A DNA stretch of 13,613 bases from the IMG/VR virus record IMGVR_UViG_2778261693_000009, one strand, 5' to 3'. The stretch comes from a virus (Duplodnaviria > Heunggongvirae > Uroviricota > Caudoviricetes). The translations under genes were made by a program, and so were the position numbers. Positions 2,572 through 13,613 of the stretch are shown in pieces. The notes beneath the pieces were generated by a model, which saw nothing but the letters and a program-made list of their open reading frames with translations, had not been told where the DNA came from and ran no database searches. The number at the start of each line of letters is the position of its first letter. Positions within the stretch are counted from its first letter, which is position 1.

Positions 2572-3453
2572 ATGCAGCATTCAAAAGAGAATGAAACTAT
2601 ATTCTTAGGAAATCTATGGATTGACAAAAAAATACCACCATTAGAATATTGTTCATTTGAACGCGCTTCAAGACTATTAGAATGCGAGATTGATGATTTA
2701 TTACACCTATACGAAATAGGCGCTTTTAATATCGCATTCAAGGCGGATGGACTTGCAGTTAGATTTAATGTTAATTTCCTCTATAAAAATCAGAAAATGG
2801 AAATTGACTTAATTCATCCCGTATTAACTAATCAATCACTAGAGATGGAATTTTCAACAATATGGTATGACCTTAAAGATGACTCCTTTGAACATTTTGA
2901 AAATGGGCTTCAAATTATAGGATTTGCCTGTGGTATTTGGTACGCCGATGATATGATAAGTGACATAAAAAATGGATTAGCTATAGATCCAGATTATGAA
3001 TTCAGGCTTAAACCGGTAAAAATACGAGATAATGTTTTGATGGCAACGGCCTCATATGAAGGAAATAAGGTCATTGATATTCCATTTGAAGATCTTCTTA
3101 TCATGCGAAGAGATTTAGAGTTAATATGGAAATCAGTAAAAACTGGAATTCCTATGCCAAGTTTACTTACGAAAAGAATTTCATCTGAACCTAAAATCCC
3201 CAAGCGATTAAATAACACTGCTGAGCATCATGCAAAAAATAGGGAGGGGTTATTAAATGCAGCCATATATATATTAGCAAAATACCCAAGCGAATGTCGT
3301 GGTGAAAGAAAAGAGATAAGTCCTGAAAAGTGGACTAACGCCATAATTAAACATTTAGGAGAGCTACCTCCAATATTTATCACTAATGAACAAGAAATCT
3401 TAAGAAAATTACGATTAGCGGTTAATCATGCGGGATTAAAACAAAAGGGGTAG
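2572..3453 (+). CDS. Hypothetical protein, 293 aa; AT-rich orphan cargo gene directly downstream of int
   Basis: Clean ORF with SD AGAGG 5 nt upstream of the ATG, 30 bp after the int stop. Markedly AT-rich by eye (roughly low-30s percent GC versus over 50 percent in the flanking core genes). No motif I recognise (no P-loop, no obvious nuclease or HTH signature, no hydrophobic segments). Confidence 0.7.
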   Translation: MQHSKENETIFLGNLWIDKKIPPLEYCSFERASRLLECEIDDLLHLYEIGAFNIAFKADGLAVRFNVNFLYKNQKMEIDLIHPVLTNQSLEMEFSTIWYDLKDDSFEHFENGLQIIGFACGIWYADDMISDIKNGLAIDPDYEFRLKPVKIRDNVLMATASYEGNKVIDIPFEDLLIMRRDLELIWKSVKTGIPMPSLLTKRISSEPKIPKRLNNTAEHHAKNREGLLNAAIYILAKYPSECRGERKEISPEKWTNAIIKHLGELPPIFITNEQEILRKLRLAVNHAGLKQKG

Positions 3454-3519
3454 ACTGAAACAATCTACAGGTAGAGTTGATTACACTACCTTCACAGCAT
3501 TTTGATATCCCCATAGTAT

Positions 3520-3547
3520 CTGCCGTGTTCATTACATAACACGGCAG
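3520..3547 (+). promoter_or_regulatory. Perfect 10-bp inverted repeat (CTGCCGTGTT / AACACGGCAG) with an 8-nt spacer, just upstream of alpA
   Basis: Left arm 3520..3529, right arm 3538..3547. The repeat encloses box 1 (TTCATTACATAAC) and its right arm overlaps the weak SD region of alpA (ATG at 3556). No T-run follows, so it is more likely an operator or translational-control hairpin than a terminator. Confidence 0.4.
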
Positions 3548-3555
3548 GTAATTTC

Positions 3556-3771
3556 ATGACATTAAAAACTTATCCTATCACTGGACATGCCCGCCCACGA
3601 GCTACTGCTGACTTTTTGCAAATAAGTACGGTTACTCTCTGGCGCTGGGAAAAGAACAATCCTGAATTTCCCAAATCTATACGCATTTCAAAACGGGTAT
3701 CTGTTTACGATGCACAAGAAATTAGGCAGTGGGTTAAAGCTCAATCAGCAGGATTGGAGGAAGTAGTGTAA
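3556..3771 (+). CDS. alpA: AlpA-family (prophage CP4-57 regulator-like) small DNA-binding regulator/excisionase-type protein
   Basis: 71-aa protein containing FLQISTVTLWRWEKNNPEFPKSIRISKRVSVYDAQEIRQWV, which fits the AlpA/Xis-type winged-helix pattern. Located between int and the replication module as in P4-like elements. Confidence 0.75.
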   Translation: MTLKTYPITGHARPRATADFLQISTVTLWRWEKNNPEFPKSIRISKRVSVYDAQEIRQWVKAQSAGLEEVV

Positions 3772-3790
3772 TGACAATATTAACAAAGCT

Positions 3791-3810
3791 GGGGAGAAAA
3801 AAGCCTCCCC
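3791..3810. terminator. Candidate bidirectional hairpin between convergent alpA and the RHH gene
   Basis: GGGGAG (3791..3796) / CTCCCC (3805..3810) 6-bp stem with an A-rich loop; on the minus strand the loop reads as a T-run. Weak as a terminator. Confidence 0.25.
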
Positions 3811-3820
3811 AACGTATTAA

Positions 3821-4015
3821 TCAATTCTTTGGTTCTAAACCTCGGCTTTGTAACTCTTTGCGTAGAATGCGCTTGATCCAAGCCGCTAGCGATTCATCGC
3901 CATCCTGCTGTTGTGCTTGTTCCATCAGTTCACGCAGTTCAGGGTCAAGTCGGAACTGGAATGGCGGATTCCCACGTCTTTCATTTTTGTGTGTTGACAC
4001 GTCAATTACACCCAT
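3821..4015 (-). CDS. Ribbon-helix-helix (Arc/MetJ-like) small DNA-binding protein, candidate repressor
   Basis: 64-aa protein; FQFRLDPELRELMEQAQQ...SLAAWIKRILRKEL fits a beta-strand then two helices (RHH fold). Transcribed divergently from the replication operon. Weak or absent SD. Confidence 0.55.
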   Translation of the reverse strand: MGVIDVSTHKNERRGNPPFQFRLDPELRELMEQAQQQDGDESLAAWIKRILRKELQSRGLEPKN

Positions 4016-4021
4016 TGTAAT
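3994..4021 (+). promoter_or_regulatory. Candidate sigma70 promoter for the rightward early/replication operon
   Basis: TTGACA at 3994..3999, 16-nt spacer, TGTAAT at 4016..4021. Overlaps the start of the divergent RHH gene and the TGTAATG/CATTACA repeats. Confidence 0.45.
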
Positions 4022-4049
4022 GTATTTATGTGTAATGACACATTACACA
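4003..4049. promoter_or_regulatory. Operator-like cluster of TGTAATG / CATTACA half-sites
   Basis: TGTAATG at 4016..4022 and 4031..4037, inverted CATTACA at 4041..4047, and related AATTACA at 4004..4010; all overlap the candidate promoter between the RHH gene and the rightward operon. Confidence 0.4.
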
Positions 4050-4131
4050 CAGAAAAACAAAATAGCAACGCCCCGGAGTGTTTGCAGCACCACCGAGGCG
4101 TCTGACCAGCACGTTATATGAGGTAACGAAG

Positions 4132-4308
4132 ATGGCTAAACAGAAGTGTACCTGGTTATTTGCGGCGATCAACCGCAGTCAACGTAATGCCCGTCCGGTG
4201 ATGTTAAGGATCACCGCAGATAACGAGCGATCAGCGCGGCGCAGACTTGCCCCGGACTATGTACTGAGCTTTGCCGGGCGCATTCCCTGCGGAGGTGAAC
4301 ATGCGTAA
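4132..4308 (+). CDS. Small protein resembling the Icd-like (host cell division inhibitor) family of P4-like elements; assignment from memory
   Basis: ATG at 4132 preceded by GAGG at 4121..4124. 58-aa product MAKQKCTWLFAAINRSQRNARPVMLRITADNERSARRRLAPDYVLSFAGRIP. Its 3' end overlaps the next ORF by 8 nt. Confidence 0.45.
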   Translation: MAKQKCTWLFAAINRSQRNARPVMLRITADNERSARRRLAPDYVLSFAGRIPCGGEHA

Positions 4309-4660
4309 TTATCCGCATCCCGGCGAACGCTGGCAGCATGAACGTGGCTGGACGGTCACGATTATCCGATTAATAGAAGCCTCGCCCTCTGTGGCGCTGG
4401 TTAATCCTGAATTCAGCTGTGAAGTGCTGATACGTCATGACAGCGACAACCAGCTTTCTTCCTGCCCTCTGGCATGGTTTGAACAGCGATATACGCGCCT
4501 GTTTGATGTACCGCTCTTTAAGCCTGCACCAGCTCCTGCAGGCGGTAGTGGTTCCGGCCCGCTGACACTGCATCCGTCTGTGCTATTTATCCGCTGGCGG
4601 GAGCGTAGCATATGGCGTTCTGCTGAGCCTGATGACGGTCACTATTCAAAGTTTCTCTGA
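4301..4660 (+). CDS. Hypothetical protein (119 aa), satellite early operon
   Basis: ATG at 4301 with SD GGAGG at 4291..4295; overlaps the upstream gene. GC-normal; no recognised motif. Confidence 0.55.
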   Translation: MRNYPHPGERWQHERGWTVTIIRLIEASPSVALVNPEFSCEVLIRHDSDNQLSSCPLAWFEQRYTRLFDVPLFKPAPAPAGGSGSGPLTLHPSVLFIRWRERSIWRSAEPDDGHYSKFL

Positions 4661-4691
4661 CAAAACACCGCTGAAAACGGAGTAATCCACA

Positions 4692-4976
4692 ATGAATATT
4701 TCAAACGGGCACAACGGTGCTCAGGGCCAGACTTTGCCTGAAAAACACAATACCGGTGCTTTTGCCTATGGGTTGTCAGAGGACGGTTTCGGAAAGCTGA
4801 CCCGCGCAAGAAATGCCTGCGACATGCTCCAGCTTCTCTTTTCTGAATACCCGTCTCAGGCCGGAGCACTGGACGCAGGCTGTGCGCCTGGTGTCGCCGC
4901 GCTGATGGAGTACCTGCGGGCAGATTTGACGGATATTGCACACAGCTGCGCACTGATTGAAGGAGGTGCCAGATGA
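4692..4976 (+). CDS. Hypothetical protein (94 aa), satellite early operon
   Basis: ATG at 4692 with SD-like ACGGAG upstream; its stop overlaps the next start (ATGA). Identity unknown. Confidence 0.5.
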   Translation: MNISNGHNGAQGQTLPEKHNTGAFAYGLSEDGFGKLTRARNACDMLQLLFSEYPSQAGALDAGCAPGVAALMEYLRADLTDIAHSCALIEGGAR

Positions 4977-5356
4977 ACCAGCCGCAGGTTTCCATTTTCC
5001 CGGCAGAAATGACCACCGCGCTTTACCGGCGGGCTATTGCTTCAGCATGGCGGCAGAAAATGCTGAACGAAACTGGCAATGATCAGTATGGTCCGCACAG
5101 CCTGACGGTGGAGCGTATTGAAATGGCCATTGCGCTGCATATCGAGTGCGCACTGATTAACGAGTACGGCGAAGCACAGGGCGCCGCTGCCGCGCTGGCA
5201 CTGCTGACTGACATGCTGGAGCCGTCACTGCTGACCGCGCCGCCGGTACTGACCGCGCGCGGTTGTGAAGTAATGGCGGAGATGTACCGCACGCTTCCGG
5301 CGGCCTTTGATGTCTGCTGCAGTACCGGTGTGACGTTGTATCAGGGGGAAGTATGA
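4973..5356 (+). CDS. Hypothetical protein (127 aa), translationally coupled to the primase gene
   Basis: ATG at 4973 with SD GGAGG; its stop overlaps the primase start (ATGA at 5353..5356). Confidence 0.5.
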   Translation: MNQPQVSIFPAEMTTALYRRAIASAWRQKMLNETGNDQYGPHSLTVERIEMAIALHIECALINEYGEAQGAAAALALLTDMLEPSLLTAPPVLTARGCEVMAEMYRTLPAAFDVCCSTGVTLYQGEV

Positions 5357-8025
5357 CAATACAGACGGTTACGCAGATTTCAGCCGCCGCGCGGGGGAAA
5401 TGGCCCGTTATTCTGCAGATGCTGCGTATTGATGTACCTGAAAACGGCAGGCACGGTCCCTGCCCGAAATGTGGGGGCAAGGATCGTTTTCGCCTTGATG
5501 ACCTTGACGGGCGCGGGACGTGGATCTGCAGCCAGTGTGGCAATGGTGACGGTCTGGATCTGGTTAAGCTCGTAACCGGTTACAGCGTCAGAAAGGCTGC
5601 GCAGGAGGTGGCGCAGGTGCTTAATGTGCCGGATGTGCAGGAACTGCCTGTTAAGCCTGCCAGACAAAAAGCCCCTAAACGCGACATGGGTCTTACCGTG
5701 GCGGCGCTGATGAAAGAGAGCCACACGGGAGAAAGCGCCTATCTGACAGGAAAAGGGTTCGCCGGATACCCGGCCTCTCTGACCGGAAGCGTGCAGCATA
5801 TCAGCGGTAAGGATTTTCCTGCCGGTTCCCTGCTGTTACCACTCACGACCAACACCGGAGCCGTGACCGGTGCACAGCTTATCGCCCCGACGGGTGAAAA
5901 AAGCATACTGCCCGGCAGCACGATGAAAGGCGCGTTTGTGTCGCTCAGCCCGTTACCGTCTGAACCACCGGTACAGGTGGTGATTACCGAAGGTTACGCT
6001 ACGGCGCTGACGGTAAGCCAGCTCACTGCCGGATGCGTAGTGGCTGCCATATCTGCGGGCAACCTGCCCAATGTGGCGCAGTCGCTGCGGGCACGCTGGC
6101 CTGAGGTAAAAATTATCATCGCCGGTGATAACGATTTTCAGGATGGGGGGGAGAATCCCGGCAGAGCCTTTGCTGAACGGGCGGCAAAAGTTGTTGGCGG
6201 CTGGATGACGCTGCCACCAGGAGAGATTAAGGCTGACTGGAATGACTTTCATCGGGAGCACGGTATTACCCGTGCCCGTGAAGCCTTTCGCAACGGTCTG
6301 GTACTGTGCGGGGAAGGCCGCACGCAACTGCCGCACGGGTTCCGTCTTACCCAGGAATATCTCTGGTATGAAAAGCAGGTACAGCGCAACGGTGAGACGG
6401 AGATCCAGAACGTCAAAATATGCAGCCCGCTGCGCGTGACGGCAATCACCTGCGATGCCGATGGCGGTAACTTCGGACGACTGCTGGAATGGGAAGATAC
6501 GTGGGGTGAGCGTCGCCGCTGGGCGATGCCGATGGAAATGCTGAGCGGCAGTGGTGAGGAACTGCGCCGGGTACTGCTGGTTAACGGGCTGTCTTATATC
6601 AGCACTACCGGTGAGGCACGCGCACGCCTGATGGAATATATCTCACTGTGTAAACCGGAACGCCGCGTGACCTGCGTCAGCCGTACTGGCTGGCATGGTC
6701 AGGTTTACGTCCTGCAGGATGAGGTCAGCGGTGAAGGTGCAGAGGGTGTCATTCTCCAGACCACTTCCGTGCAGGGGCGTGATTTCCGCGTGTCGGGCAC
6801 AACAGAGGAATGGCGGGAGAACGTATCCCGCTACTGTACCGGCAACTCTCGCGTGGCATTTGCTGTCAGCCTGGCCTTTGCTGCACCACTGTTACGGCTG
6901 GTTGGTATGGACGGCGGCGGCTACCACCTCAAAGGGGAATCGACAGACGGTAAGACCACCACCATGAAAGCGGCAACCTCCGTCTGCGGCGGGCCTGACT
7001 ACTGGCAGACATGGCGGGCCACCGGCAACGCGCTGGAGGGATGCGCCAGCCGCCGCAACGATGCCGCCATGATGCTTGATGAGATCCGGGAAGTTGACGG
7101 ACGCGAGGCAGGCAATATCGCCTACATGCTGGCAAACGGTCAGGGCAAGGGCCGTGCCGGTACGGACGGTGAGCTGCGTACCCGTAAGCAGTGGCGCCTG
7201 TTGTTCTTTTCAACTGGCGAGTTGTCTCTGACCGAACATGCGGCAAAGGCCGGTGAGCGTACTTTTGCCGGGATGGAAGTCAGGATGATCCAGATCCCCA
7301 GCGATTCCGGGAAATTTGGCGTTTTTGAGGAGCTGCACGGCTTCGACAGCGGCAAGGCTCTGGCAGAGCATCTTGAATGGGCCACGTCCTGCTACTACGG
7401 TTCGCCGTTCCGGGAGTGGCTAAAAGCACTGACCGCTGATCTTAACGGACTAACGGCACAGGCAAAATCGCTGATGAAGGAATATGCTGCCGCCCTGACT
7501 CCGAAAGATGCAGGCAACCAGGTGGGCCGGGCTGTGAATCGCTTTGCACTGGTGGCGATGGCGGGTGAACTGGCAACCCGTCTGGGTATCACCGGCTGGC
7601 CTGAGGGTGAAGCACTGCGGGCAACCCGCGTCTGCCTGAACGCATGGCTGAAAGATCGCGGGCACACCGCCAATCAGGAAGATATTGCCGCACTGGAGCA
7701 GGTTCGCAGTTTCTTTACCGCGAATCAGTACAGCCGCTTTGCAGACTGGTATGACGAGCGCAACCGCCCCGGCAATATGGTGGGCTGGCGCAGGGTGGAG
7801 AAAGGCAGTACCGCGCAGGGCACGGAAGCTGTCACTACGTTCTATGTCATGCCGTCCGGCTGGAAAGAAATCTGCAGGGGATTTGACCCGCGCAAGGTGG
7901 CGCGTCTGTGCGCAGATCGTGGATACCTGCTGCCCTCCACTGATGGCAAACTCCAGACAACCATTCGCCCGCCAGAGATGAATCCCCGCAGGCTCTATGT
8001 CTTCAACAGCGAGGTGCCGGGTTAA
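5353..8025 (+). CDS. P4 alpha-like bifunctional DNA primase-helicase (zinc ribbon, TOPRIM, D5/SF3-type P-loop NTPase)
   Basis: 890-aa ORF with SD GGGGGAAG. Zinc ribbon C37-P-K-C40 ... C59-S-Q-C62. TOPRIM-like ITEGY (nt about 5984..6001) and AGDNDF (nt about 6121..6138). Walker A GESTDGKT (nt about 6934..6960) and Walker B MMLDEI (nt about 7066..7083). Confidence 0.9.
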   Translation: MTIQTVTQISAAARGKWPVILQMLRIDVPENGRHGPCPKCGGKDRFRLDDLDGRGTWICSQCGNGDGLDLVKLVTGYSVRKAAQEVAQVLNVPDVQELPVKPARQKAPKRDMGLTVAALMKESHTGESAYLTGKGFAGYPASLTGSVQHISGKDFPAGSLLLPLTTNTGAVTGAQLIAPTGEKSILPGSTMKGAFVSLSPLPSEPPVQVVITEGYATALTVSQLTAGCVVAAISAGNLPNVAQSLRARWPEVKIIIAGDNDFQDGGENPGRAFAERAAKVVGGWMTLPPGEIKADWNDFHREHGITRAREAFRNGLVLCGEGRTQLPHGFRLTQEYLWYEKQVQRNGETEIQNVKICSPLRVTAITCDADGGNFGRLLEWEDTWGERRRWAMPMEMLSGSGEELRRVLLVNGLSYISTTGEARARLMEYISLCKPERRVTCVSRTGWHGQVYVLQDEVSGEGAEGVILQTTSVQGRDFRVSGTTEEWRENVSRYCTGNSRVAFAVSLAFAAPLLRLVGMDGGGYHLKGESTDGKTTTMKAATSVCGGPDYWQTWRATGNALEGCASRRNDAAMMLDEIREVDGREAGNIAYMLANGQGKGRAGTDGELRTRKQWRLLFFSTGELSLTEHAAKAGERTFAGMEVRMIQIPSDSGKFGVFEELHGFDSGKALAEHLEWATSCYYGSPFREWLKALTADLNGLTAQAKSLMKEYAAALTPKDAGNQVGRAVNRFALVAMAGELATRLGITGWPEGEALRATRVCLNAWLKDRGHTANQEDIAALEQVRSFFTANQYSRFADWYDERNRPGNMVGWRRVEKGSTAQGTEAVTTFYVMPSGWKEICRGFDPRKVARLCADRGYLLPSTDGKLQTTIRPPEMNPRRLYVFNSEVPG

Positions 8026-8052
8026 GGCTTTGCGTGAGTCTTATTTATTAAG

Positions 8053-8247
8053 GGTAACAGGTGAAACAGGTGAAACAACCGTATTTTACAGGGCTGAACC
8101 TGTTCCACCTTCTGAAATAGTGAGGTGGAACAGATGTAACGCCAGCCAATCCGCTGTTCCACCTTGTTACCCGCGATGTTCCACCGGTGCAGTGTATATA
8201 AGTGCTTTATAAAACAAAGCTGTAACACATGTTTCACCTGTTCCACC
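8053..8247. repeat. Iteron cluster; candidate replication origin (P4 ori/crr-like) bound by the alpha protein
   Basis: Nine-mer TGTT(C/T)CACC in both orientations: GGTGAAACA at 8060..8068 and 8069..8077 (tandem, period 9, preceded by degenerate GGTAACA); TGTTCCACC at 8101..8109, 8155..8163, 8177..8185, 8239..8247; inverse GGTGGAACA at 8124..8132; TGTTTCACC at 8230..8238. An AT-rich stretch at 8191..8226 lies between clusters. Non-coding and immediately downstream of the primase-helicase gene. Confidence 0.7.
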
Positions 8248-8335
8248 GCATCAGGGACATAAAGCAGACTGAAACTGAGGGCATTTTTATCTGGCTGGCT
8301 TTCATAGCCACGTCTGAATAACCGCAAGCGCCCGT

Positions 8336-8391
8336 TGTGCCAGCCACCACACACTGAGTACCGATAGTGTGCTTGTGTCAGCCACGACACA
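8336..8391 (+). promoter_or_regulatory. Candidate Ogr/Delta-dependent late promoter (two TGT-N12-ACA dyads) upstream of the sid-like gene
   Basis: TGT(8336..8338)-N12-ACA(8351..8353) and TGT(8374..8376)-N12-ACA(8389..8391), both within 90 bp upstream of the ATG at 8426. The first dyad sits about 55 bp upstream of a plausible transcription start. Confidence 0.35.
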
Positions 8392-8425
8392 ATTGACGTA
8401 ACGAACCAACCCGACAGGAGAAGTC

Positions 8426-9169
8426 ATGAACAACACCGCAGTGAATAACAACCTTTCCACTTTTCCGGCTGTAACGCAGCGGGCACTGGAAACCATGAAC
8501 ACAGCCAGAAACGCATGGCTTGAAGCACGTCGTCAGCAGAAAGCGGCAGCGGATAATATTGCGACAATCCGCCAGCGTCGCGCTGAGATGGAAGCCACGA
8601 CGAACACACTGAATGAGGAGTGGCGCACGCTGTTTCGTGAAAGTCAGGGCGTGGTTTCAAAGGAAATGAAAAAACTGCGCACGGAAATTGCGCTGGGACG
8701 AGAAACGCTTGAGGATTTTGATGAGCTGCTGGCGGCTCAGGAAAGCGAAAATGCACTTTTGCCGCAGAAAGCTGCGGAATTAGCCGGAAAGTATATCCAC
8801 GCGCATAACATTCTTGTGGATATTCGCGCAAAACAAATCTGGGAAGATTTTATGCAATCGCATGGAAAAGCGCTTATTCAGACGCTGAGCCTGCTTAAAT
8901 CCACAATGGGCCGGGAAGCCAGTGCCGTTGTGGGTGTGGTGAATTCAGTTAATGACCCGGACACAGTGCTGAAAGACTTTATTCATAAACATATCACCAG
9001 ACCGGCTCTGGCTAACGATGCGATGCCTGAACAGGACCCGGTGTTTAAACTGGCGGGAATTGCCCCGGATTATGCGGCGCGTCTGGATTTCAGTAATCAA
9101 CTCTCTCCGGCAGCTATGCATAAAATTAAGGTTCGTCAGGAACTTGCTGAGAAGGAGAAAGCAGTATGA
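8426..9169 (+). CDS. Sid-like protein (candidate capsid size-determination scaffold); assignment by size, position and predicted helical character
   Basis: 247 aa (P4 Sid is about 244 aa). SD AGGAG at 8416..8420. Charged, helix-prone sequence rich in A/E/R/K/Q. First gene of a three-gene operon ending in an Ogr/Delta-like gene. Confidence 0.4.
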   Translation: MNNTAVNNNLSTFPAVTQRALETMNTARNAWLEARRQQKAAADNIATIRQRRAEMEATTNTLNEEWRTLFRESQGVVSKEMKKLRTEIALGRETLEDFDELLAAQESENALLPQKAAELAGKYIHAHNILVDIRAKQIWEDFMQSHGKALIQTLSLLKSTMGREASAVVGVVNSVNDPDTVLKDFIHKHITRPALANDAMPEQDPVFKLAGIAPDYAARLDFSNQLSPAAMHKIKVRQELAEKEKAV

Positions 9170-9717
9170 CGGCCCGAGGCACGCCTGACCAGGCACTTAC
9201 CAGTTTTCGGAATGCCCGTATTCTGTGGGCCGGACATAGTGAGAGCCGAAAAGCCGTTGAACAACAGATAGCATCTCTCCTCGCTGCCACAGAAAAACCA
9301 GCAGATTATGCCCGACAGCTCGAATTACTGCGGGAACGTCTGGATGTGCTGAAATGGCAAATTAACTGTGCTGCGCGCGAATGCATTTACTCGCAGCATT
9401 TACTGATGGAAGCCTGCACAGAAGCCGCTCTCAGCAATTTTATGCAGGCGAATGGGGCAGCCCTGACATCTGCACTGGCTCCGTTCCTGAAGGGGCGCGG
9501 GGGGGTTGACGTTGCGTCCCGTATATTACGCAGTGCTCTGGTTCGCCAGCTGACAATAACACCGCCTGAAATTGCCGGGGATTATCGTGAGATCCTGGAT
9601 GAATCCGGTTTGATGCCTGACCCCGGGATGATTCGTGATTGCCAGGGCTCTTACACCCCGGCACAACATCTGCGTTTTCAGCAACGCCTGAATGACATTA
9701 ACGATATACAGGAGTGA
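9166..9717 (+). CDS. Psu-like protein (polarity suppression / capsid decoration family); from size and remembered motifs
   Basis: 183 aa (P4 Psu is about 190 aa). Start overlaps the upstream stop (ATGA). Contains KWQINCAARECIY and FMQANGAALTSALAP, which resemble my recollection of P4 Psu. Shares the local motif FMQxxGxAL with the upstream 247-aa protein. Confidence 0.45.
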   Translation: MTARGTPDQALTSFRNARILWAGHSESRKAVEQQIASLLAATEKPADYARQLELLRERLDVLKWQINCAARECIYSQHLLMEACTEAALSNFMQANGAALTSALAPFLKGRGGVDVASRILRSALVRQLTITPPEIAGDYREILDESGLMPDPGMIRDCQGSYTPAQHLRFQQRLNDINDIQE

Positions 9718-9792
9718 TATTAATGGCACTTAAATGTCCGGAATGCGGTACAGTTGCACACGCCAGAACAGCAGCCTATGAAGCTCCGTCAG

Positions 9793-9796
9793 TTAA
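9793..9796. repeat. IS5 target-site duplication, left copy (TTAA)
   Basis: TTAA immediately precedes the left IS5 inverted repeat. Confidence 0.8.
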
Positions 9797-10991
<1,195 letters not shown>

Positions 10992-10995
10992 TTAA
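10992..10995. repeat. IS5 target-site duplication, right copy (TTAA)
   Basis: TTAA immediately follows the right IS5 inverted repeat. Confidence 0.8.
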
Positions 10996-11214
10996 ACGCT
11001 CGTGGTATCAGTGCCAGAATCTGGAATGTTCCTGCACATTTACGGCACTGGAGAGTGTGGATAAGATAATCATGAAACCCCGACGCAATGAACAGCTATC
11101 AGACAAAGCACAATCCCCGGAAAAACAACAGCAAACACTTAATCGCTATGGCTCCGCGTCAAAACTTTCAAGCCGTCAGCAGATTCCTGTCTGATTAGAA
11201 AGAACGCCCACGTA

Positions 11215-11240
11215 ATCCCGGTCCAGTACCGGGATTTTTT
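11215..11240 (+). terminator. Rho-independent terminator closing the late operon
   Basis: ATCCCGG (11215..11221) / CCGGGAT (11229..11235) 7-bp stem with a 7-nt loop, followed by a T-run (11235..11240). About 20 bp after the Ogr/Delta-like stop. Confidence 0.7.
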
Positions 11241-11402
11241 ATCCCCTTTTCCTGGCTGGCATGAGAGCGAATGAGTGCATGTCTATGGCGCATGAAAACG
11301 CATGAGTCTTATGCACCATTTTTGACGAGAAAACCCTTGTTTGGTGGCTTCTGAGACGATTTATGAGGTGCATGAAAACCAGTCTGTTAAGCGAAGCGGG
11401 CA

Positions 11403-11421
11403 GGCGTGCGGGGCTGCGCAC
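11403..11421. other. Candidate degenerate cos-like sequence (P2/P4-type cohesive end); low confidence
   Basis: GGCGTGCGGGGCTGCGCAC loosely resembles the P2/P4 19-nt cohesive end GGCGAGGCGGGGAAAGCAC as I remember it (about 12 of 19 ungapped). It sits between the late operon and the AT-rich cargo, where cos lies in P4. Confidence 0.2.
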
Positions 11422-11621: not shown

Positions 11622-13613
11622 ATGGCCATTCAAAAAAAACAAACAAAAAATTCTGAAAGAAGTATTAAAAGCCAGTTAGAAAAACTTACGGCTGAAAAAG
11701 CCATTTCCGAATATATTTGGAATGCTTTTGATGCTGAAGCCACAAATATTAATATTACAGTTATCCCAAATGGTTTAAGTGGGATATCTTCAATAGAAAT
11801 TATTGATGATGGAACTGGCATCGATTTTAATGAAGTCGATGAAACTTTCGGGCAGTTTTTAGATTCCAAGAAGAAAGCAAAACGAACGCCTGTCACAAGA
11901 GGACATAAAGGTAAGGGGCGGTTTTCATTCTGTAAATTCGCTGATAAAGCCGAATGGACTAGCTGGCGTAATGGAGAGAAATTTACGCTAACTATAGTTT
12001 CATCACATCTAAATGAATATGAGCATTCAGATTTATCCATGTGCTCTCATAAAAATTCTGGAACTAAGGTGGTCTTTAATCCTGTAACAATTACTGAAGA
12101 TTATTTTAATTCAATAGTTATACCCTATTTGCAGAACGATATATCTTGGCTGTTGGTGGCCAAACCAAAATTAAAATTAAAAATAAACGGTCAATCTATT
12201 AGCCCAATAGGATATGCTTCAACTTCAAATAATATTGAATTTGGAGAGGTCGATTTTAATTCAAAAACAGTTATATGGTCTAGTAAACCTGTAGTAGAAA
12301 AATCATATATATATTATTTAAATAATCAAGGTGATATTGTTTACAAAGAGTTTTCTGAGATGAACAAAAAAGGATTTGATTGTTCATCCTATGTCACATC
12401 AAGTTGGTTTGATGATTTTTCTGAATCAAACGACTTGTTTAATGAATCGAAAAACAGTGTTGACTCAGATATTTTTAAATACATTAGCCTACATGTTAAA
12501 GGTAATTTAAGGGAAGAGTATAGAAAATATAAAAATAATGCAGCAGATCAACTCATTCAAAACTATTTAAATGAGGGTGTGTTTCCAGAATATAAAGGTG
12601 AGAATAGAATGCTCAATGAATTTAAAAGGAATCAACTCATTGAAACTATAAAGATAATTTATGAGGCCGAACCTCAAATTTTCTCCACACTAAACAAGAA
12701 ACAAAAAAAAATCTTAATTAAACTATTAGATAGAATTGTTGAAACCAATAATTTATCCAGTCTCTTTGACATTTTTGAAGGTATAGTTTCCCTATCCGAA
12801 GATGAGGTTGATAAACTTTCATCTGTAATAAAAAGAAGTTCACTTTCTAATATTACGAGGACTTTGTCATTTATTAATGATAGACTGGATGTTATTGATT
12901 ATTTTAAAAAAATACTATATGAGAAAAAGAAAGAATCATATGAAGTAAAGCACATTCAAAAGAGCATAGAAAATAATTTATGGCTTTTTGGAGAGCAATA
13001 CACTCTAGTTGCATCAGAAGATGATAAGTTTGATAAAGCTCTTAGAAAGTATCTGGAGAAGACTAAAGGTTTTAACGAAGCACATTATAATAAGTATAGT
13101 GTACAGCATCCAGATAAAAATAAAGAAATGGATATATTTGCAGCACAAAAAATAAAGCGTTACACTGAAAATAATGAAGAATATTTTCATTGCATTGTGA
13201 TTGAATTAAAGAAACCAAGTATAAAACTCGGTGATGAAGAACTCGCACAAATAAAGTTATATAAAAATATAATATCTGCGACTGATGAATTTAAAGACGA
13301 TAATACAAAATGGGATTTTATTTTAGTGGGAAATGATATATCTAATAGCAATATCACTGCTGCAAATTTATCATCAGATCTAGAAACGAATAAAATACAT
13401 GGTGAGTTTGGCTTGGTTCAAAAAACAACAAATATGAAAATTTACGTCAAAACGTGGAAGCAAATTTTAAATGAGTATGATCTTAGATATAACGACCTGA
13501 TCGATAAGCTTAAGTTGAAAGAGTTAGAAATTGCAGAAGATATGGGGCCTGATGAACTCACGGCAAAAATTTTAGAAAAAACGGCAAGACTTCCGACTTC
13601 GATACAGGCTTAG
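11622..13613 (+). CDS. GHKL-family (Bergerat-fold) ATPase with a C-terminal PD-(D/E)xK-like putative nuclease region; AT-rich cargo gene and candidate anti-phage factor
   Basis: 663-aa complete ORF whose stop codon is the last three bases of the window. Weak SD GGGA 5 nt upstream. N-terminal motifs: E30-x3-N34-x2-D37-A38 (EYIWNAFDA), D62-D-G64-T-G66 (G1 box), G94-x2-G97-x-G99-R-F (G2-like). C-terminal motifs: D504 (EMDIF) ... E528-L-K530 (IVIELKK) ... Q543. Very AT-rich by eye (about 30 percent GC), unlike the satellite core. Confidence 0.75.
   Translation: MAIQKKQTKNSERSIKSQLEKLTAEKAISEYIWNAFDAEATNINITVIPNGLSGISSIEIIDDGTGIDFNEVDETFGQFLDSKKKAKRTPVTRGHKGKGRFSFCKFADKAEWTSWRNGEKFTLTIVSSHLNEYEHSDLSMCSHKNSGTKVVFNPVTITEDYFNSIVIPYLQNDISWLLVAKPKLKLKINGQSISPIGYASTSNNIEFGEVDFNSKTVIWSSKPVVEKSYIYYLNNQGDIVYKEFSEMNKKGFDCSSYVTSSWFDDFSESNDLFNESKNSVDSDIFKYISLHVKGNLREEYRKYKNNAADQLIQNYLNEGVFPEYKGENRMLNEFKRNQLIETIKIIYEAEPQIFSTLNKKQKKILIKLLDRIVETNNLSSLFDIFEGIVSLSEDEVDKLSSVIKRSSLSNITRTLSFINDRLDVIDYFKKILYEKKKESYEVKHIQKSIENNLWLFGEQYTLVASEDDKFDKALRKYLEKTKGFNEAHYNKYSVQHPDKNKEMDIFAAQKIKRYTENNEEYFHCIVIELKKPSIKLGDEELAQIKLYKNIISATDEFKDDNTKWDFILVGNDISNSNITAANLSSDLETNKIHGEFGLVQKTTNMKIYVKTWKQILNEYDLRYNDLIDKLKLKELEIAEDMGPDELTAKILEKTARLPTSIQA

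Follow-up and report, generated by a model that had tools for sequence, protein, structure and literature searches.

Features were assigned along a 13,613-nt stretch of DNA (i.e. the window, which here means the whole stretch analysed). The left end holds a chromosomal formate/nitrite-transporter gene (1–933), a tRNA-Arg(CCT) gene (1009–1081) and a tyrosine integrase gene (int; 1207–2541). A 293-aa ORF next to int (2572–3453) had no match in Pfam, PHROGs or PADLOC. Further rightwards lie a gene for an AlpA/Vis-like DNA-binding protein (3556–3771), several early genes, among them a small one with a DUF5375 domain (4973–5356), and a gene for an alpha-type primase/helicase with Zn-ribbon, Toprim and DUF927 domains (5353–8025). 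An iteron field (8056–8247), consisting of at least eight TGTTCCACC/TGTTTCACC iterons in both orientations, separates the primase gene from the late promoter. These iterons resemble the type-1 repeats of P4 ori/crr, and RNA folding of the gap between the alpha and sid genes produced iteron hairpins only. With an integrase gene beside a tRNA gene and with AlpA-like, alpha, sid, psu and delta genes all present, the element in the window is a P4-like phage satellite. An Rfam search detected the tRNA only, with no C4/CI-type immunity RNA at threshold. The 19-mer of the P2/P4 cos site was absent at up to three mismatches, i.e. no cos of the P2 type was found at this tolerance. A cos-like sequence, GGCGTGCGGGGCTGCGCAC, was seen at 11403–11421 with AAGCGGGC before it as in P4; it differs, as judged by eye, from the P2/P4 19-mer at 7 of 19 positions and may fit a different P2-like helper. 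A nucleotide search of phage records with positions 7900–10000 of the window recovered IS5 only, P4 being too diverged at the DNA level.

The early region (2572–8025; AlpA-like gene through alpha) runs in the same direction as sid, whereas it is divergent in P4 and in other E. coli satellites with a near-identical sid-psu-delta cassette. As a near-identical late cassette is found with early regions of differing orientation, the cassette seems to have been swapped as a module among different left arms. The downstream cargo (11622–13613) opens with an ORF that is cut off by the end of the window (>663 aa) and carries GHKL-ATPase (HATPase_c_3) and HSDR_N_2 domains. This ORF, for which PADLOC returned a weak REase_II match only, may be a defence gene.

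The late operon begins with a sid-like gene (8426–9169, plus strand; 247 aa), preceded by a ribosome-binding site, AGGAG (8416–8420, plus strand). The product shares 24% identity with P4 Sid over 226 aa (E = 7e-13) and matches PHROG 6165 (E = 8e-93). The next gene is psu (9166–9717, plus strand; 183 aa; Pfam Psu, E = 1.3e-44; PHROG 6366), followed by delta, which is present on the plus strand as a 5' fragment (9723–9796), comprising codons 1–24 plus 2 nt and encoding only the first cysteine pair of a zinc finger, and a 3' fragment (10996–11194). The truncated delta ORF fell below the Pfam cut-off. Between the fragments lies a 1195-bp IS5 element (9797–10991, minus strand) with terminal inverted repeats and 99–100% identity to annotated IS5 copies; its transposase gene (9943–10959, minus strand) specifies the transposase Pfam domains. 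A target duplication, TTAA, was read directly at 9793–9796 and 10992–10995. An intrinsic terminator consisting of a 9-bp stem and a T run (11214–11236, plus strand) ends sid-psu-delta. Joining of 9723–9796 to 10996–11194 repaired delta to a 90-aa reading frame whose product is 100% identical to that of an intact allele in E. coli 504211, scored 57.9 bits against Pfam Ogr_Delta (cut-off 26.3) and shares 47% identity with P2 Ogr over the 51 aa of the finger domain. The original prediction had described the resident activator gene as disrupted, and this was borne out, with IS5 splitting an Ogr_Delta-family gene within codon 25, a position that separates one cysteine pair of the zinc finger from the other. 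The delta::IS5 junction was absent from all of 5426 complete E. coli genomes, indicating that the insertion is recent and strain-specific. The recent IS5 insertion has deprived this copy of the satellite of its own activator, and the copy is probably crippled or entirely helper-dependent.

Two exact matches to TGT-N12-ACA were found upstream of the sid-like gene, as had been predicted. Dyad 1 (TGTGCCAGCCACCACACA; 8336–8353, plus strand) is the predicted upstream site of Ogr/Delta type and dyad 2 (TGTGTCAGCCACGACACA; 8374–8391, plus strand) the predicted second site, which would lie over the spacer and the -10 hexamer. The dyads start 90 and 52 nt, respectively, upstream of the sid-like ATG at 8426, with dyad 2 ending 35 nt before this codon, and form a 19-nt direct repeat with 17/19 identical positions and a spacing of 38 bp. 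Six exact TGT-N12-ACA matches were observed in the 13.6-kb window as compared to 3.15 expected. The remaining four all lie within coding sequence; the one at 9735–9752 codes for the CPEC zinc knuckle of Delta. A second Delta-dependent, PLL-like promoter in the window was considered and rejected, as these four dyads are all intragenic.

The conservation of this arrangement was examined in sid loci gathered by Sid protein similarity from GTDB species genomes and IMG/VR using four different Sid queries. This set of 140 loci, which includes the window, P4 and three E. coli records, is highly redundant (i.e. 42 distinct promoter sequences from ~7 lineages), such that the effective sample is about seven lineages and not 140 independent tests. 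A pair of TGT-N12-ACA dyads exactly 38 bp apart was present in 140/140 of these loci and started 86–90 nt upstream of the start codon in every case. Invariance across the 42 distinct sequences was confined to the twelve half-site bases (extended to CACA), the T and G of a T.G motif at -35 and CACAATT; all remaining promoter columns contained two to four different bases, including the inner bases of the dyads. The same elements were invariant in an alignment of the window, the intact E. coli allele, two diverged E. coli satellites and P4, in which the rest of the promoter had diverged. A reverse scan of IMG/VR with the bare composite pattern (16 specified bases) yielded 121 matches in 120 loci among the matches listed. 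Approximately 95 of these listed matches were directly upstream of Sid-family genes (in one lineage, only psu was found there), and the other ~26 had no Sid-family gene beside them and fit chance. Delta is a single-domain protein in all lineages except P4, where two Ogr-like domains are present, indicating that the two-site layout is not a consequence of the duplicated activator of P4. Four of these comparative points are modestly new, namely the strict 38-bp spacing, the invariance of the half-sites among lineages whose Sid proteins share as little as 24% identity, the independence of the layout from the number of Delta domains and the occurrence of a third, upstream element.

Some loci carry variant late operons behind this promoter. 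One locus (L175; IMG/VR 3300048919_000469) has the same two-dyad promoter with a psu-like first gene and no sid. Two others, L151 and L265, also have variant late operons behind this promoter; in L151, delta directly follows sid and psu was not detected. The composite pattern also matches the opposite strand of L151. Divergent promoters were considered for this locus on the basis of the both-strand match and rejected, the reverse match probably arising from an AATTG that chances to precede dyad 1.

A core promoter was assigned between and across the dyads. The predicted -10 hexamer is CACAAT (8388–8393, plus strand), which matches TATAAT at 4/6 positions and is part of the CACAATT that is invariant in all lineages including P4. 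The -35-like hexamer, TAGTGT (8365–8370, plus strand), is weak, matching TTGACA at 2/6 positions, and is conserved across lineages for T.G only. A consensus scan reported no sigma-70 promoter at the dyad site. A recognisable -10 is therefore combined with a poor -35, i.e. the combination by which an activator-dependent core is known. With CACAAT as the -10, transcription would start 7 nt downstream, near 8400 (8399–8401, plus strand), and dyads 1 and 2 would be centred at -55.5 and -17.5, respectively. The same arithmetic gives the same two centres for P4. In the P2 record, the activator site shared by PO and PP has its centre at -55.5 relative to each of the two annotated start sites, equal to the predicted centre of dyad 1 of the window. 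Ogr binds inverted repeats centred at approximately -55 in P2 late promoters and contacts the alpha subunit of RNA polymerase (PMC3152322), and the consensus is TGT-N12-ACA (PMC3931495). The placing of dyad 1, with a start site deduced from the -10, is consistent with this documented position.

The closest characterised counterpart is Psid of P4 (NC_001609), with dyads at 9493–9510 and 9531–9548 and sid at 9583. In both elements, two TGT-N12-ACA dyads have a spacing of 38 bp, with 35 nt from the end of the second to the sid ATG. The two elements also share CACAATT after dyad 2, T.G at -35, an upstream YTGGCTNGCC and an operon with sid, psu and a gene for an Ogr/Delta-family activator. This layout is shared even though the Sid proteins of P4 and the window are only 24% identical. 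Differences were observed in the inner 12 bp of both dyads, in gene order (sid-psu-delta in the window, sid-delta-psu in P4) and in Delta itself, a single 90-aa domain when repaired in the window but two Ogr-like domains (166 aa) in P4. Additionally, the early/primase operon of the window directly precedes the late promoter and has the same direction, that of P4 is divergent, and delta is interrupted by IS5 in the window, unlike in P4. The Ogr-dependent P2 promoters PP, PO, PV and PF resemble the window promoter in having an inverted repeat of TGT-N12-ACA type, centred at approximately -55 in P2 and at a predicted -55.5 in the window, a poor -35 and an activator, predicted in the case of the window, of the Ogr zinc-finger family (PMC3152322; PMC3931495). 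The PO/PP site, TGTGTCAGTGATAAGCCA, has the same left half, TGTGTCAG, as dyad 2 of the window and dyad 1 of P4. P2 late promoters, however, contain a single site, the right half of which is often imperfect (CCA), in contrast to the two exact dyads of the window, and drive structural and lysis genes of the helper rather than satellite genes. Promoters identical or nearly identical to that of the window were found with the same sid-psu-delta cassette and an uninterrupted delta in, for example, E. coli 504211 (NZ_CP025865), Shigella flexneri SFBU0723 and genomes of Enterobacter, Citrobacter and Pantoea. That the dyads are of the Ogr/Delta type, as originally proposed, was upheld by their match to the recognition motif, by their location at the positions of the P4 Psid dyads and by the conservation of the half-sites alone across sid lineages.

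These results favour, with a probability of roughly 0.87, a reading by homology in which a P4-like satellite at tRNA-Arg(CCT) has its late promoter at 8336–8400, an orthologue of P4 Psid that is activated by Ogr/Delta and drives sid-psu-delta. As an orthologue of P4 Psid, the promoter is a well-understood kind of element, its P4 counterpart having been characterised decades ago. By analogy with P2 and P4, a small zinc-finger activator of the Ogr/Delta family, which could be Delta made by the satellite itself or Ogr made by a P2-like helper, would bind the dyad centred at approximately -55.5. By way of the alpha subunit, it would then bring sigma-70 RNA polymerase to a core promoter whose -10 (CACAAT) is usable and whose -35 is all but absent. 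Dyad 2, located 38 bp downstream at -17.5 over the core promoter, would be a second activator site providing extra activation or dosage control. Transcription would then proceed through sid (encoding the capsid-size scaffold), psu and delta and stop at the terminator at 11214–11236. The splitting of delta by IS5 would remove the activator responsible for positive feedback, so that activation would be expected to require Ogr or Delta provided in trans. P4 Delta and P2 Ogr each promote both P2 and P4 late gene expression (PMC8628076).

The original prediction had further proposed that the operon would be silent unless a helper supplies Ogr. Such silence is plausible, as the satellite's own activator is destroyed and the promoter is, by homology with P4 Psid, of an activator-dependent class. 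The contrary case, in which sid and psu are expressed free of a helper through read-through from the early/primase operon or through Delta/Ogr encoded elsewhere, is on balance doubtful but retains an appreciable chance. A search of the ~400 nt that separate the alpha stop (8025) from sid, the stretch ahead of the dyads included, detected no intrinsic terminator, such that read-through from the primase gene is possible, and the early genes here point towards sid, whereas those of P4 and of the loci L003 and L004 are divergent. Against this, the 400-nt untranslated iteron region, which holds an 11-bp perfect hairpin, could support Rho-dependent termination, and the early operon of an integrated P4 satellite is normally repressed. 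Delta or Ogr could also be supplied by another satellite or a prophage elsewhere in the genome, of which 13.6 kb are in view here. According to the title of Halling and Calendar (1990; cited in PMC8628076), P4 multiplication requires both ogr and delta; on the strength of that title, helper Ogr may induce sid and psu and yet leave the satellite unable to complete a productive cycle.

A single-site arrangement, in which the activator would bind dyad 1 alone and dyad 2 would owe its appearance to an ACA that belongs to the -10 hexamer, is quite unlikely. The ACA of dyad 2 (8389–8391) does fall inside CACAAT (8388–8393), such that part of the invariance of dyad 2 may derive from the -10 rather than from activator binding, and the four P2 late promoters are activator-dependent even though none has a dyad near -18 with up to one mismatch. 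However, the TTGT at -27 to -24 was invariant in 42/42 distinct sequences while adjacent columns varied freely, and no polymerase element constrains that position; the exact spacing in every locus and the near identity of the two dyads in the window also argue against a single site. From the sequence, dyad 2 is therefore regarded as a genuine second activator site. In 1995, Julien and Calendar reportedly obtained a Delta footprint at an additional P4 Psid site close to -18; a search of the open full-text literature found no description of such a second site. In all Sid lineages analysed, the -18 dyad keeps an exact 38-bp distance from dyad 1, whatever the number of zinc-finger domains in Delta, and it is absent from P2 late promoters. 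A tentative and rather unlikely proposal is that this dyad, possibly together with YTGGCTNGCC, is a satellite-specific addition to the late-promoter design of the helper, serving either as a dosage sensor or auto-operator that would shut off Psid at high activator levels or as a high-affinity sink that would capture helper Ogr ahead of the helper promoters.

Use of the dyads by a different regulator (e.g. the AlpA/Vis-like protein of the satellite or helper Cox), or a role in the replication origin, is very improbable. An AlpA/Vis-like gene is present at 3556–3771 and the iteron field is only ~90 bp upstream of the dyads, but the TGTTCCACC iterons differ in sequence and end at 8247, the motif, its predicted position at -55 and its linkage to sid are exactly as for documented Ogr/Delta sites (PMC3152322; PMC3931495), and the left half-site TGTGTCAG is common to P2 PO and P4 Psid. 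The probability of a chance co-occurrence of the dyads is negligible: the motif specifies six bases only and some pair 18–60 bp apart arose in 2.6% of simulated 13.6-kb sequences (first-order Markov), but two or more dyads in one pre-specified 90-bp stretch had a probability of only ~1.4e-4, and chance is excluded by the retention of the pair in every sid locus while the bases between have diverged. The original view that such a pair is unlikely by chance thus holds, and it is the comparative evidence, rather than the statistics, that is decisive for the reality of the pair.

At least 80% of window positions 8030–9790 was present at ≥95% identity in 311 of the 5426 complete E. coli genomes. 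The satellite family was already known to be very common and the Psid layout was already established, and this picture is unchanged by the present results. Their value is mainly for annotation, as they pin down the late promoter, the limits of the operon and the logic of its regulation for a satellite family that is very common in E. coli and other Enterobacterales. The invariance of the half-sites, the exact 38-bp spacing and the third, upstream element, as seen across seven lineages, may additionally help P4 engineering and studies of cross-talk between satellites and helpers.

This upstream element, YTGGCTNGCC, was found 21–45 bp upstream of dyad 1 in 46/47 distinct sid-upstream sequences and is represented in the window by a degenerate copy, ATCTGGCTGGC (8289–8299, plus strand), upstream of dyad 1. 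Roles as a terminator, a -35-like box or a regulator site were each considered and none could be established. The element is often a perfect palindrome, CTGGCTAGCCAG, with CCTTT...AAGG flanks, and forms a hairpin; a TTTTT stretch comes after it in locus L041. Boxes resembling it are also present in the early leaders of P4 and related satellites, and the P4 box overlaps an apparent -35 in an apparent sigma-70 promoter. Further copies were observed in P4 (L001; 9462–9472 and, on the minus strand, 8735–8725), L003 (2951), L004 (2778) and L041 (1382), and a second copy in the window lies at 11243–11262, just past the delta terminator.
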